A stretch of DNA of 64,000 nt, taken from assembly GCA_963752595.1 (NCBI GenBank), contig CAVVYZ010000013.1, positions 32,001 to 96,000 of the forward strand, given 5' to 3'. Origin of the DNA: an uncultured delta proteobacterium (GTDB lineage: Bacteria; Desulfobacterota; Desulfomonilia; UBA1062). The notes beneath the pieces were generated by a model, which did not search any database, was not told where the DNA came from, and worked only from the letters and a program-made list of their open reading frames with translations. Positions 48,917 through 60,111 of this stretch are shown piece after piece. The translations under genes and the position numbers were made by a program. Positions within the stretch are counted from its first letter, which is position 1, and every line of letters starts with the position of its first letter.

Positions 48917-50468
48917 ATGAGCAATATTATCAACCGTGACACGATCGGCGACATGGCCCGGAGGGCAGCAACAAAATACGGCGACAAGACCGCCATCATA
49001 TTCCGCGACATCAAGCTCTCGTTTTTCGATCTCGAGCGGGAAGCCAGGCGCTTTGCCCACCTGATGACCCGGTACGGGGTCAAAAAGGGCGACCGGGTAG
49101 CCGTCTATGCATACAATTCCCACTATTATCCCATCAGCATGATCGGGCTCGCCAAGATCGGCGCAATCCAGGTCCCCATCAATTACATGCTGAATGCCGA
49201 GGAGATCGCCTACATCATCAACCACTCAGGGTCTAAGGTCTTCATCGTCGAGGACGCCCTGTATCCGATCATTGCCCAGTCCCAGGCCAGATTCGCCACC
49301 GTGGAAAAATGGGGATTCATCCCCTTGAGCGATTCGATGGTGCCGGACGGGTTCTTCAACCTGATCACGGAAATGGGAGCCATGCCCTGTGACGAGCCCC
49401 AGGTGGAGGTCAGCGCGGAAGACGTCGTCCAGATCCCCTATACCAGCGGCACGGAATCGAAGCCCAAGGGGGCCATGCTCTCGCACAGGGCGCTCATGTC
49501 GCAGTACCACAGCTGCATCTTCGACGGCCAGTACGACACCTACGATGTGAGTCTCCATGCCCTGCCGCTCTTCCATTGCGCCCAGCTCCACTGCTTCCTC
49601 ATGCCGTATCTGTACATCGGGGCCACGAATGTCATCATGCACAAGGCGGATCCCCTGGAGATGATCAGGAACATCGAGAAATACCAGATCACCCACATGT
49701 TCGCGCCGCCCACCGTGTGGATCGGCATCCTGAACCATCCCGAATTCAAGAACTACAACCACGGCAGCCTGAAAAAGGCGGCCTACGGCGCCAGCATCAT
49801 GCCGGTGGAGATCATCAAGCAGCTCTCCGTGACCTTCCGGGGCCTGAAGCTCTGGAATTACTACGGCCAGACGGAGATGGGACCGGTGGCGACCATCCTG
49901 AAGCCCGAGGACCAGCTTCTGAAGCCGGGCTCGGCGGGCAAGCCGGTGCTGAACGTCGAAACACGGCTCATGGACGATGACGGCAAGTTCGTGCCCGACG
50001 GCGAGGTGGGCGAGATCGTGCACCGCTCGGGCCATGTCATGACCGGCTATCTCAACGACCCGGAAAAGACCGACGGAGGCCTTCGCCTTCGGCTGGTTCC
50101 ACAGCGGCGACCTCGGCAAGTTCGACGAGGACGGCTATCTCTACGTGGTGGACCGCAAGAAGGACATGATCAAGACCGGCGGCGAGAACGTGGCCTCACG
50201 CGAGGTGGAGGAGGTGCTGTACCAGTATCCGGGCATCGAAGAGGTGGCGGTCATCGGCCTGCCCGATCCCAAGTGGATCGAGATCGTCGCAGCCGTCGTC
50301 GTGCCGAAAAAGGGAGCGTCCCTCACCGAAAAGGAGATCATCGCCTACTGCAAGGAGCACCTGGCAGGGTTCAAATGCCCGAAAAAGATCGTCATTGCCG
50401 ACAAGCTTCCGAAAAATCCCTCGGGCAAGATATTGAAGCGCGAACTGAAGGAGCAGTTGGGGAAGTAA
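48917..50468 (+). CDS. Acyl-CoA synthetase (AMP-forming, FadD-like; frameshift near 50075)
   Basis: YTSGTESKPKG, YGQTE, then VDRKKDMIKTGGENV and LPKNPSGKILK in the next frame. Confidence 0.92.
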
Positions 50469-52466: not shown

Positions 52467-54118
52467 TTACTCTTTACTTTCCGATGTCCTGAATTTCTGA
52501 ACATCCTGCGCGAGTACGGTTGCCACGGTGCGTAGGTTATCGAGCGTGCTCGCGAGTTCTTCCACGGTGGAGGCATTGTGCTGGGTGGTGCCGTCTATCT
52601 GGGAGATGGCCTTGCGTCAGCTCGCCGATGTTCTGCGTCTGCTCCGTACTGGATGTGCTGATCACCTCCATCATCCTGAAGAAGAACTCCATGCGCGACA
52701 TGAGCTCTTCCAGCGAAGGAGGAGGTCTTTTTCATCATCTCATCGCCGTTCTTGATCCGGCCCACCGTGCCTTCGATCAGGGCCTTGATCTCACGGGCAG
52801 CCTCTGCCGAACGCTGCGCCAGAGACCTCACCTCGCCCGCCACGACGGCGAACCCTTTCCCGTGCTCGCCTGCCCTGGCCGCCTCCACCGAGGCATTCAG
52901 GGCGAGCAGGTTCGTATGGAAGGCCACCTCGTTCACTGTCGAGACGATGTCACCTATCTTTCTGGAATCCTGGGATATCTCCTGGATGGCGTTCATCAAC
53001 TGCGCAAAGATATCCTTGCTGTGATCAATGAGTTTGGTAACGGCATTCGATGTCTCCTGCCCCTCATGGATGAGCTCGCCGTTGTGCTGGATCGTCCCGT
53101 TCATTTCCTCGATGGATGCCGAGATCTCCTCAACGGAGGCCGCCTGTTCCTGGGTCGCCTGGGAAAGGTCCTGAGAGCCCGCACTCACGTCCTCTATGGT
53201 CTGATGGAGCTCGAGAGAGGTCTGCCTCACATCATGGATGATCTGCTCGATATCATCCATGAAGGCATTGAACCAGAACGCGAGTTCGCCCACCTCGTTC
53301 AATCCCGTCACCTCGAGCCGCTTGGTGAGGTCGCCCTGTCCCTTGGCCACATCCTTGAGCATGAACGACATCCTGCCCACGGAAAGTTTGAGGCTCTTCA
53401 TGAGGAGATAACCGTTCAGCACTGTCATGATAACTGTCTGCACAATGATCAGGAAGAACCCTAACTGGATGGATTCCAGCTTCAGGCCGGTATAAATAGA
53501 CAGGTAAATGAGGCCCAGCAGGTTTCCGATGGGAGGGATTGCTATGAGAAGGATCGTAATCAGGAGCTTTCTGTTGAGGCTCATGCGGAACAACCGGACT
53601 TTACCGTCCAGGATCCCCTTGAGGTTACTCTGCATATAGAATGGAAACAGGCCGCTTTCCGATGCAAGATAGGTAAATGGCATAATGGAAAATGCAGTCA
53701 TGACGAGGGCATTTATTCCGAATGCTGCCTCGTTCATGTCGATGTGACCTCTCATGTAAAAGGGTATGACACTTATGATGATTGCGGCAAGAGACCACCT
53801 CAGGAAGACGATAACGGTCTCCGCTAACGGCAGGATGGCGGCGGAACTCACGGCACCCTGCAAATCACCGGACCTTGAAGTGCCATTGTCCATGACCTCA
53901 ATGGCGGGCTTGACAAGAATATATTTTACCAGAAATCCCAATATAAACCCGACCGTAGCTGTGGTTGATGCAAGGATGGCAGCTTCGAGGAGATTAGCCC
54001 TGAACCCGGGGATTGCATTCATAAAAATGAAATAAATAAGGGGGACAAGTACCAGGGCGGATACGGATTCCTGATATATAAACGGTTTTACGAACAGGAC
54101 TTTTGAATTCTCTGTCAT
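52467..54118 (-). CDS. Methyl-accepting chemotaxis protein with a polytopic membrane N-terminus (3' frameshifts)
   Basis: About 6 TM segments, [44 protein letters not shown]. The tail [19 protein letters not shown] lies in a shifted frame. Confidence 0.88.
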
Positions 54119-54469: not shown

Positions 54470-55339
54470 TCATCGGAACGAAATAAGCTTGGCGCCGAGA
54501 TACACGCCTGCCCCTCCGGCCATGGCCCGCGTTGTTATGGGGAGCGGTTTGGAACGTAATGCCACAGGACCCAGCATGGGCTTGAGCTTATATCCTATCC
54601 TGATCCCTCGCGCCGCACCCGGAACAGCTTTTTCCAGGTCGGAATAACTCTGGGGCAAACCGCGTGCAAGGCCCGGCCATCCGTTCACCATATACGCCAT
54701 AACGTGAGGCGTCTTGTCTATCCCGCCCCGTACGACGCAGGCACCCTCCGGACTGGTCAGCTCCTCGAGTGCCCGATGGAGTGACGGAGCGTGCGTCCAC
54801 ATATTGTAGAACGACATGCGCCCCTCGCTGCTTATCACGTAGGTCGGGTGTGAAAGGCCGCCGTACACCTGGTGGACCCTGCCTTCGAGATCATCCACCA
54901 GCACGCGCCAGGGGATTTCTTCGGCATCCCGGTATCTCCGTGCATCCTCCATCTTCTGTTCATAGGTGTCATATGCCGGGGCCAGGGGGCCGGGGTGGGC
55001 CTGGCGGATGAAAACTTCCAGAAACTGTACCCTGTCGCCCCAGCTGCAGTACAGCTTTTTGAACGGCTCGACCGAGCCGATTGTAGCCGGTCAACTGATT
55101 GATCCGAAGCGCAGGAGCACCGGCTTGCCTCTGAGATCGCCGAGTCTGATCCTGTTTCCATCCGTATCCTCCAGCTCGAAATCAGGGACAGGACAGCCGG
55201 GGCCGATGCCCTTGCCGGCCATAGTCCTTCTGGCATCCATCATTGCATACGGCCTCAGGAAATGATCATAGTTGTATTCATCTATATCCTGTCGGTCTAT
55301 CATCTTGTCGAACAGTTCCGCTACCGTTCTCTGTTCCAT
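54470..55339 (-). CDS. Deiodinase-like thioredoxin-fold selenoprotein, 289 aa, Sec encoded by UGA at 55093-55091
   Basis: ORFs 55091-55339 and 54470-54952 are in the same frame, and the only stop between them is one TGA. Read-through gives PDFEL...GKPVLLRFGSIS-U-PAT...FLEVFIRQAHPG...LVDDLEG..H..YG...PTYVI. A SECIS-like hairpin follows the UGA. Confidence 0.88.
55062..55082 (-). promoter_or_regulatory. Bacterial SECIS-type hairpin
   Basis: mRNA reads UGA-CCGGCUACAAU-CGGCUC-GGUC-GAGCCG. The 6-bp stem starts 11 nt after the UGA, the apical loop begins with G, and the stem extends by AA/UU with a bulged U. Confidence 0.8.
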
Positions 55340-55515
55340 ATGTCCTCCCGGTTCCGGTAATGATTTTTTAAGGGAATGAGCAATACGTCATAGAGGAAAA
55401 GTAGAAAAAAACAGCCGGATCTCAATATGCGGCCGAAATTTCACATCGGGTTTTCAGCCGATGGGTTTTCAATGTGTGAGAGCCATGAGGGCCAAGGAAA
55501 TCAGCTCCCGGCAGG

Positions 55516-59520: not shown

Positions 59521-60111
59521 ATGATTGGATTGCCGGATTTACCATATGGCAAGAATGCTCTTGAGCCGACGATTAGTGCCAAGACCCTGGAGTTTCATCA
59601 CGATAAGCATCACAAGGCGTACGTGGACACCGCGAACAAGCTCATAACAGGGACGGACCTGGAAAAGGAATCGCTGGAGACTATTATACGCAAGGTTGCC
59701 GGCGACCAGTCAAAGGTGACGCTTTTCAATAATGCAGCCCAGGTCTGGAATCATAGCTTCTACTGGCAGTGCCTCAAGCCGGGAGGCGGCGGTGCGCCGG
59801 CCGGCACCGTCGGCTCGAAGATCACCTCGATCTGGGGCAGCGCCGGGAAGTTTTTCGAAGAACTGAAGAATGCCGGAGTCACGCAGTTCGGCAGCGGGTG
59901 GGCATGGCTGGTGCTCGAAGGCGGCGAGCTCAAGATTACCAAGACCGCCAATGCCGACACCCCGCTCGTACACGGGCAAAAGCCCCTGCTGACCATCGAT
60001 GTGTGGGAGCATGCCTATTATCTCGACTACCAGAACCGGAGGCCGGACTACCTTTCAGCCGTAATCGAAAAGCTCATAAACTGGGACTTCGTGAATTCCT
60101 GCATGAGATAG
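59521..60111 (+). CDS. sodB: Fe superoxide dismutase
   Basis: HHDKHH, Fe-type NNAAQVWNH, DVWEHAYY. Confidence 0.95.
   Translation: MIGLPDLPYGKNALEPTISAKTLEFHHDKHHKAYVDTANKLITGTDLEKESLETIIRKVAGDQSKVTLFNNAAQVWNHSFYWQCLKPGGGGAPAGTVGSKITSIWGSAGKFFEELKNAGVTQFGSGWAWLVLEGGELKITKTANADTPLVHGQKPLLTIDVWEHAYYLDYQNRRPDYLSAVIEKLINWDFVNSCMR

Follow-up and report, generated by a model that had tools for sequence, protein, structure and literature searches.

The gene and its reading frame

The gene under study lies on the minus strand of the window, by which we mean the whole stretch of 64,000 nucleotides that was analysed. The features referred to below are as follows.

54470..55339, minus strand: full gene, 289 codons with the UGA read as selenocysteine (Sec), plus the terminal TGA; full-length Cys homologues of 289 aa share 55–68% identity with it
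55344..55349, minus strand: Shine-Dalgarno-like GGGAGG, 4 nt 5' of the ATG; function presumed from the sequence
55091..55093, minus strand: in-frame UGA, predicted Sec83, in S-x-[S/T]-U-P and at the position of Dio3 Sec170 (alignment to 4tr3)
55064..55079, minus strand: predicted bacterial SECIS hairpin CGGCUC-GGUC-GAGCCG, starting 11 nt past the UGA, with the loop at +18 to +21; overlaps the GSVEP codons
54752..55207, minus strand: thioredoxin/peroxiredoxin-type core with deiodinase insertion, about residues 45–196 (Pfam, AF2 model, Dio3 fold match)
55259..55276, minus strand: N-terminal Y-N-x-x-H-F motif, residues 22–27 (Y22 77/80, N23 80/80, H26 75/80, F27 76/80 among the best 80 of 135 related loci)
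54989..55006, minus strand: RQAHPG motif, the clade signature, residues 112–117; Gln113 at Dio3 Glu200, His115 at His202
54473..54742, minus strand: helical C-terminal domain, residues 200–289, ending in a long helix (AF2 helices; mean column identity 53% over 22 members)

Translation from 55339 down to 54470 gives 289 residues with a lone internal TGA at 55093–55091 (codon 83), in the context GKPVLLRFGSIS-U-PATIGSVEPF. Under translation table 11, the locus yields two ORFs, one of 82 aa (55091–55339) and one of 160 aa (54470–54952); since the latter begins at codon 130, codons 84–129 form an open link of 46 codons. The proposal of an earlier note on this DNA, that the two ORFs are one 289-codon frame broken by a single TGA and joined by 46 open codons, is borne out by this translation, and positions 54470–55339 are almost certainly a single gene cut in two by annotation. 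At this locus, an Rfam scan gave two chance matches only, and a promoter scan gave no sites and two terminator-like matches at chance level.

The same note had mentioned indel errors elsewhere in the window, and these are present: relative to intact relatives, frameshifts occur near 50080 in an acyl-CoA synthetase gene (48917–50468, plus strand) and near 52610–52720 in a chemotaxis-receptor (MCP) gene (52470–54118, minus strand), in both cases probably through assembly error. With two true frameshifts less than 5 kb away, an assembly error at the TGA had to be ruled out by comparison. A contig of run X1, assembled independently, spans 54855–55143 and differs from the window at one letter (55009) and nowhere in the TGA; it has a depth of about 3 and may stem from the source sample. 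X1 alone among runs X1–X4 covers the TGA; for the check in reads proposed in the note, it offers a low-depth contig rather than reads.

The codon at the selenocysteine column

Scanning GTDB genomes led to 135 confirmed related loci; the counts given here rest on the best 80 of these 135, which together with the window's own gene make 81. Excluded from the 81-locus count are L088–L096, whose 60-nt contexts repeat those of L008–L015 and L077, as well as L007 (a TlpA paralogue) and L097 (a member of another clade). The codon counts, like the selA counts below, include loci L021, L023, L038 and L056 from genomes G066, G068, G079 and G094, which are flagged unpublished. It should be noted that the best 80 of 135 were found partly via the RQAHPG pattern, and motif invariance within this set is therefore partly circular.

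The codon at the Sec column is TGA in 74 of the 81 loci, Cys in 5, Ser (TCG) in 1 and Arg (CGA) in 1. Within the genus of the window's genome, 9 of 11 genomes have an orthologue, with TGA at this column in 9/9. Full-length protein matches carry Cys in 17 of 19 cases, Ser in 1 and Gly in 1, and all five full-length 289-aa homologues (55–68% identity) carry Cys. The alignment of homologues gave Cys or TGA at this column in nearly all cases, as the note had expected. In 97 of the 120 phmmer matches listed, the annotated start lies 3' of the UGA column. The scatter of Cys forms within TGA groups of an unrooted tree (see below) suggests ancestral Sec with repeated loss.

Overall, the retention of TGA across several phyla, the Cys in homologues, the covarying hairpin and the co-occurrence with selA, the last two presented in the following sections, uphold the original interpretation of the UGA as Sec, and we have very little doubt that the product of the gene is a selenoprotein.

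Individual sequences show other states. Locus L062 has CGA (Arg) at the Sec column together with a perfect SECIS, and selA and tRNA-Sec are present in its genome, which would fit a sequencing error or a recent loss. L060 carries a second in-frame TGA at the codon of the conserved Trp100 and represents either a pseudogene or an error. In L023/P0010, Ser replaces Sec and the protein carries a DUF1990 fusion; P0011 shows Gly at the Sec column.

The SECIS hairpin

The hairpin CGGCUC-GGUC-GAGCCG, noted earlier as lying eleven nucleotides past the UGA, is found at 55079–55064, and covariation across loci supports its assignment as a SECIS element. According to the accessible text of PMC13188914, bacterial SECIS elements are modelled with a loop of 3–9 nt having G in its first two positions, a stem of 4–16 bp, a spacing of 16–37 nt and a minimum free energy of −7.5 or lower. 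With a 4-nt loop (GGUC), a 6-bp stem, a spacing of 17 nt and −9.5 kcal/mol when folded by itself, the hairpin of the window gene lies within all four of these constraints. Its folding energy is unremarkable in its own sequence (z = −1.85), and in the 60 nt from the UGA it is not the minimum-energy fold (pair probability about 0.01); a ribosome positioned over the UGA would, we infer, remove the pairing that competes with it. The actual support for the hairpin is comparative.

When 68 distinct TGA contexts are compared, the hairpin's seven base pairs are 97.7% paired, with compensatory changes in six of the seven, and both-side changes occupy 40 cells, compared with 6.3 in shuffles (0/500); kinship inflates these counts, yet several kinds of change occur, distributed over phyla. 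Controls with slid partners are 21–48% paired. Each of the six inner pairs is intact in 73–74 of the 74 TGA loci, and 73/74 TGA loci have a complete 5-bp stem, versus 1/7 non-TGA loci, the one being the CGA locus. The loop reads GGUC in 64 TGA loci and AGUU in 10, so that GU is always present.

The constraint is also visible in the protein. The GSVEP peptide occurs in 57/74 TGA loci versus 1/17 Cys proteins, and its codons are frozen, with one exact string in 45 of the 57 loci against 1.4% expected from the codon use of the same genes; the codons of RQAHPG vary freely though this peptide is equally conserved. Changes that preserve the stem and alter the protein give GAVAP (8 loci), GGVPP (4), SGVPL (2) and GTVVP (1), and the Cys forms drift at this site (GSVKP, GSLAP, GLTKP). 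By these comparisons, the element is an unusually clean case in which a signal in the RNA makes amino acids covary. The window hairpin is in the same register as the Sec-peroxiredoxin hairpin of the same genome.

Selenium machinery and other selenoprotein genes

The genome that contains the window (G000) has selA (524 bits), selB (361 bits) and selD (377 bits), all over the cut-off, and its selD has an in-frame TGA of its own. Rfam models, and blastn and nhmmer with the tRNA-Sec genes of ten relatives, gave no selC in this assembly, which is 84% complete, so that of the sel genes named in the note for this check, selA, selB and selD were recovered and selC was not. The latter is present in 10 of 12 genomes of the genus; G004, the closest relative of G000, gave no selC match either. 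The genes flanking selC, conserved in six relatives, also have no orthologue in G000, indicating that the selC block is probably unassembled; most likely this syntenic block falls into an assembly gap. By their motifs, the flanking genes in the six relatives are surE-, rnc- and era-like. An ARAGORN call of tRNA-SeC at C1:367477–367545 of G000 is false: it is 69 nt long and has poor stems and no Rfam support.

In a sample of 50 genomes behind the loci, TGA-carrying genomes have selA over the cut-off in 39 of 43 cases, a partial selA in 2 and none in 2, one of these with a strong tRNA-Sec; in Cys-carrying genomes, selA is found in 2 of 5.

A rough scan of G000 for GU-loop hairpins gave 42 candidates, mostly noise, in which the deiodinase-like gene ties for the strongest hairpin. 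At least nine further recognisable selenoprotein genes of G000 have the same type of hairpin. Going by their motifs, the candidates presumably include a peroxiredoxin-type gene (TFV-U-ATE), five of formate dehydrogenase type, SelD, and two tandem small proteins (GKxx-U-PY). These apparent selenoprotein genes lie at C1:243552, C1:279982, C9:296013, C15:218841, C18:11450, C23:77394, C17:5663 and 6083, and C2:89176.

Fold, motifs and C-terminal domain

The protein matches Pfam families PF00578 (AhpC-TSA, 35.1 bits) and PF00837 (T4_deiodinase, 31.6 bits against a cut-off of 27), and Redoxin as well; in a six-frame search with the stop left in place, PF00837 reaches 24.9 bits. An NCBIfam scan of the protein and its homologues gave no model over the cut-off, with NF038285 (deiodinase_rel) at 58 bits for the window protein and 57–68 for six full-length homologues, against a threshold of 250.

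The AF2 model (pLDDT 89.6, 20 sequences) has a thioredoxin/peroxiredoxin core, a loop-helix insertion as in deiodinases and a helical C-terminal part. In a fold search with this model, Dio3 (Z 15.5, rmsd 2.6, 158 aligned) is tied with ResA/TlpA-type proteins, and the nearest folds include ResA/TlpA, AhpE, BCP and Dio3. The thioredoxin fold and the kinship with deiodinases, both suggested from the sequence at the outset, are supported by Pfam and by the fold match.

Besides Sec83, there is no conserved Cys column (best 14/80 among the best 80 of 135 loci), and no CxxC or UxxC; position 86 is Thr in 65, Ala in 10, Ser in 4 and Met in 1 of these 80, and Cys in none. The best 80 of 135 also have no conserved Arg in residues 160–167, the region of the catalytic Arg in peroxiredoxins, and the protein is therefore not a standard peroxiredoxin. 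It resembles 1-Cys peroxiredoxins (AhpE, BCP) and TlpA/ResA in its core fold (Z 13–16), in having Ser at position −3 from the redox residue and in PF00578, and differs from them in having no conserved catalytic Arg and no CxxC and in carrying the deiodinase insertion. Position 113 of RQAHPG is Gln in 114 of the 120 phmmer matches listed and Glu in 1, so this residue is not just an artefact of retrieval. The Y-N of the N-terminal motif has a weaker match in the sister-clade protein L109.

For the last 106 residues, there was no PDB match at E ≤ 5 and no meaningful Pfam match; fold searches with the whole model barely probe this domain, and modelling the C-terminal 96 residues alone from one sequence gave an unusable result (pLDDT 37). 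The C-terminal helix is hydrophobic in most members, with a 19-residue window of hydropathy ≥1.6 in 51 of the best 80 of 135 loci; the value for the window protein is 0.91. In most members, this helix would probably tether the protein to the membrane. The window protein has no obvious signal peptide and, on this ground, is probably cytoplasmic.

A query of the Atlas with the Cys homologue P0002 returned Actinomycetota and Acidobacteriota clusters whose AhpC/redoxin names are automatic; Cys relatives are already in databases, without a functional name.

Comparison with animal deiodinases and other bacterial branches

Compared with Dio3 (4tr3/4tr4) and Dio2 (9h48), the protein is alike in the insertion after beta-2, the Sec position, 24% identity and Z 15.5. 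It is unlike them in that the omega loop of the RQAHPG clade is 9 residues shorter, the hydrophobic helix is C-terminal rather than N-terminal as in the deiodinases, and the SECIS lies within the coding region. The deiodinase relay is described, in the part of PMC12025243 at hand, as His219-Glu200-Ser167 with Tyr197 and Thr169. In our mapping, for which the Dio3 residue numbers were checked against the accessible text of PMC7506546, Ser167 (S80, 79/80), Thr169 (T/S82, 80/80) and His202 (H115, 80/80) are kept in the best 80 of 135 loci, and Arg225 corresponds to an invariant Lys129 (80/80). The window motif is FIRQAH rather than the deiodinase YIxEAH. Tyr197 becomes Phe110 (in the best 80 of 135: Leu 36, Phe 18, Val 18, Ile 8, Tyr 0), Glu200 becomes Gln113, and His219 becomes Tyr123 (Tyr in 78/80 of the same loci). 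Cys168 corresponds to Ile and is not kept in the clade, and the shortened loop is without Trp207 and Asp211; there is no ERLY or GGRGP segment.

Judging by these residues, at least three branches of bacterial deiodinase-like proteins can be told apart, which differ in their active sites. A near-animal clade with YIREAHPxDGW (L097, L108) has an in-frame TGA at the same column and belongs to the same fold family, but keeps Tyr197, Glu200 and Trp207, with YIREAH, DGW, ERLY/DRLY and G-P-x-GF segments. It scores 167–201 bits with NF038285, the closest model, and 98 bits with Dio3 (L097), compared with 58 and 31 for the window protein. The closest sister group, 33% identical over 184 residues, is an REAHPG clade that comprises L109 with its relatives and corresponds to the Atlas cluster "deiodinase family protein"; it has the N-terminal Y-N and HPG in common with the window clade and occurs in Sec and Cys forms, but keeps Tyr197, Glu200 and usually His219 and has a different C-terminus. 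In a tree of 102 cores, one branch splits off 52 RQAH rows (SH-aLRT 97) and another the near-animal rows (99), the tree being a quick, unrooted IQ-TREE result with no animal rows and with a mis-extracted outgroup row (L105). The third branch, L109:1288–1974 (minus strand, YVREAHPG), has a TGA and a hairpin of its own, and its relatives include a Cys record named as a Nitrososphaerales archaeon.

Genomic neighbourhood and distribution

The window gene stands alone between aminotransferase and chemotaxis-receptor genes, and no conserved operon was found across the neighbourhoods of the best 80 of 135 loci. Recurrent neighbours in these 80 are SDRs (12), two-component/sensor genes (9), luciferase-like genes (5), zinc-type alcohol dehydrogenases (4), DUF1990 (4), HbpS-like genes (3) and flavodoxin-like genes (3 + 5), a list that leans, on gene content, towards redox and general stress functions. 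No halo-aromatic genes recur in these neighbourhoods, and G000 has no reductive dehalogenase (RdhA) over the cut-off. The DUF1990 genes adjoin the deiodinase-like gene in L018, L027, L039 and L047. In one acidobacterial genome (L024), the gene lies between genes of NiFe(Se)-hydrogenase small- and large-subunit type (−1905 to +1094 from the UGA). In the window, a 196-aa ORF 4 kb from the gene (59521–60111, plus strand) is, from its motif, presumably an Fe/Mn superoxide dismutase.

Among named records, the closest are MAGs of Syntrophaceae and Desulfomonilia. Cultured carriers include the Pseudonocardia nigra type strain (L069/L075). By record name, 71 of the 80 related loci (best 80 of 135) lie outside Deltaproteobacteria/Desulfomonilia/Syntrophaceae, and most of these belong to Acidobacteriota, Chloroflexota, Actinomycetota, Armatimonadota or Gemmatimonadota, many of which we take to be aerobic soil lineages. 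The link to anaerobes drawn in the earlier note is not supported by these loci. Among 61 relatives, orthologue-level matches occur in the own genus only, and PF00837 is found in 5 of 301 genomes of the phylum, so the gene is patchy within it.

Proposed function

Insertion of Sec at codon 83 in a SelB-dependent manner is near certain. Following the established SelB pathway, SelB carrying Sec-tRNA would bind the GU-loop hairpin immediately in front of the ribosome, and Sec83 would be inserted. We propose, with a probability of roughly 0.55, that the resulting protein is a single-selenol reductase for defence against stress (peroxides or electrophiles) rather than a deiodinase, since the clade is without key deiodinating residues. 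The selenolate of Sec83, held by Ser80, Ser82, His115 and Gln113, would attack a small electrophilic or oxidising molecule, for instance an oxidised thiol or a hydroperoxide of organic type. Since a second Cys is not conserved, the selenium, once oxidised, would depend on an external thiol for its recycling, either a low-molecular-weight thiol or thioredoxin, and the C-terminal domain and the YNxxHF segment may shape the substrate site or an oligomer. The AhpC-TSA and Redoxin matches, the nearest folds, the missing second Cys and the redox- and stress-leaning neighbours make this role likely as far as sequence comparison goes. Against it, the neighbouring genes differ between loci, SDRs are widespread in any case, and many of the loci with an SDR are related to one another. 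The retained Ser80, Thr/Ser82 and His115 and the deiodinase insertion fit a defined small-molecule pocket as well as they fit a general peroxidase.

The function originally suggested, a Sec-dependent reductive dehalogenase for halo-aromatics, would now need a rewired relay, with Tyr123 making up for the missing hydroxyl at Phe110 and Gln113 standing in for the Glu anchor. PF00837 over its cut-off speaks for it, as do Sec at Dio3 Sec170, the kept equivalents of Ser167, Thr169 and His202 and the Lys129 at Arg225; Dio2 (9h48) has the top query-normalised TM-score among the Foldseek matches listed (0.50, 182 columns), and Dio2, too, is without the proximal Cys in the available text of PMC12025243. 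The replacement of Tyr197, Glu200 and His219 and the missing Trp207/Asp211 loop, ERLY and GGRGP weigh against it. The accessible text of PMC7506546 reports, at second hand, Tyr197Phe, Glu200Thr, Thr169Ala and Glu-to-Ala changes as abolishing deiodinase activity, and Glu-to-Gln is not among the mutants given there. With a sister bacterial clade that has Tyr197, Glu200 and Trp207 as the better candidate, no recurring halo-aromatic genes nearby and no RdhA over the cut-off in G000, we regard this function as unlikely. A TlpA/ResA-like mono-selenol disulfide reductase or isomerase, serving a specific protein partner that docks on the C-terminal domain, likewise appears improbable. ResA variants head the Foldseek matches listed, the best VIA rows are TlpA/DsbE-like, and Pro165 (72/80 in the best 80 of 135) aligns with the proline of pneumococcal thioredoxin S-Y-P-T (HMMER), but there is no CxxC or UxxC, in the alignment, the Sec falls on the second Cys of the TlpA motif, no conserved partner gene lies nearby and the deiodinase insertion is present.

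Binding or detoxification of soft metals or metalloids by the selenolate, with no turnover of an organic substrate, is suggested by two Cys-form loci that adjoin genes of arsenic-resistance type (LMWPc in the case of L079, a methyltransferase in that of L078) and by the invariant His26 and His115 as possible ligands; as these are only 2 of the 80 related loci (best 80 of 135) and no transporter or metal-regulator link recurs, we consider it quite improbable. The alternative of a genuine stop, or a sequencing error, at the TGA, with a pseudogene or two small genes as the result, could draw on the frameshift errors nearby, on the missing selC and on the 97 of 120 database matches listed that are annotated as starting after the UGA column. 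It is hardly credible in view of the cross-phylum TGA aligned to Cys, the covarying hairpin, the selA co-occurrence, the assembly gap at the selC block and the at least nine other selenoprotein genes with the same hairpin type in the genome.

Relation to known families

A bacterial selenoprotein family of "deiodinase-like proteins" was predicted, with a proposed redox role, in 2005 (Zhang, Fomenko and Gladyshev; PMC1088965, accessible text), in accordance with the note's statement that such proteins had been predicted computationally, and reviews list it with a UxxC motif and as uncharacterised (PMC9312934 and PMC13188914, in the sections available). The window clade shares with the 2005 family PF00837, the Sec and Cys forms and the bacterial SECIS just past the UGA, as far as the source text at hand goes. 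It differs in its S-x-[S/T]-U-P-x-[T/A/S] without a second Cys, the UxxC of the family being given by the reviews only, in RQAHPG rather than REAHP, and in the 90-residue C-terminal domain. The literature searched, with few subscription papers and no supplements, gave no assay of a bacterial deiodinase-like protein and no account of the RQAHPG clade, and the main text of deep-Sep (PMC12013277) does not mention deiodinase. What distinguishes the present proteins, in terms of sequence and model, is a well-supported RQAHPG clade that is mostly predicted to be Sec, with no conserved second Cys and a putative, unclassified helical C-terminal domain.

We put forward, as a tentative possibility, that they form a separate cross-phylum selenoenzyme family missing from catalogues, with ancestral Sec, a rewired deiodinase scaffold plus the helical domain, which in many cases would anchor it in the membrane, and a new small-molecule substrate. 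This would make it a hidden selenoprotein that is common among Acidobacteriota, Chloroflexota and Actinomycetota of soil, and one in which the RNA and not the protein dictates the first helix turn, GSVEP, GAVAP, GGVPP and GTVVP being swapped by pair-preserving changes. The analysis also corrects a gene that is mostly cut at the UGA in databases, as the 97 of 120 matches listed that start after it indicate.

Sorting the branches makes the function of bacterial deiodinase-like proteins and the origin of animal deiodinases testable side by side. On its residues, the near-animal clade would be a better dehalogenase candidate than the window gene, with the RQAHPG clade as its natural contrast. Its members L097:1456–2037 and L108:1315–2055 (both plus strand) are predicted selenoproteins with 1492 relatives at E ≤ 0.001, and most of those listed are annotated as post-UGA fragments.
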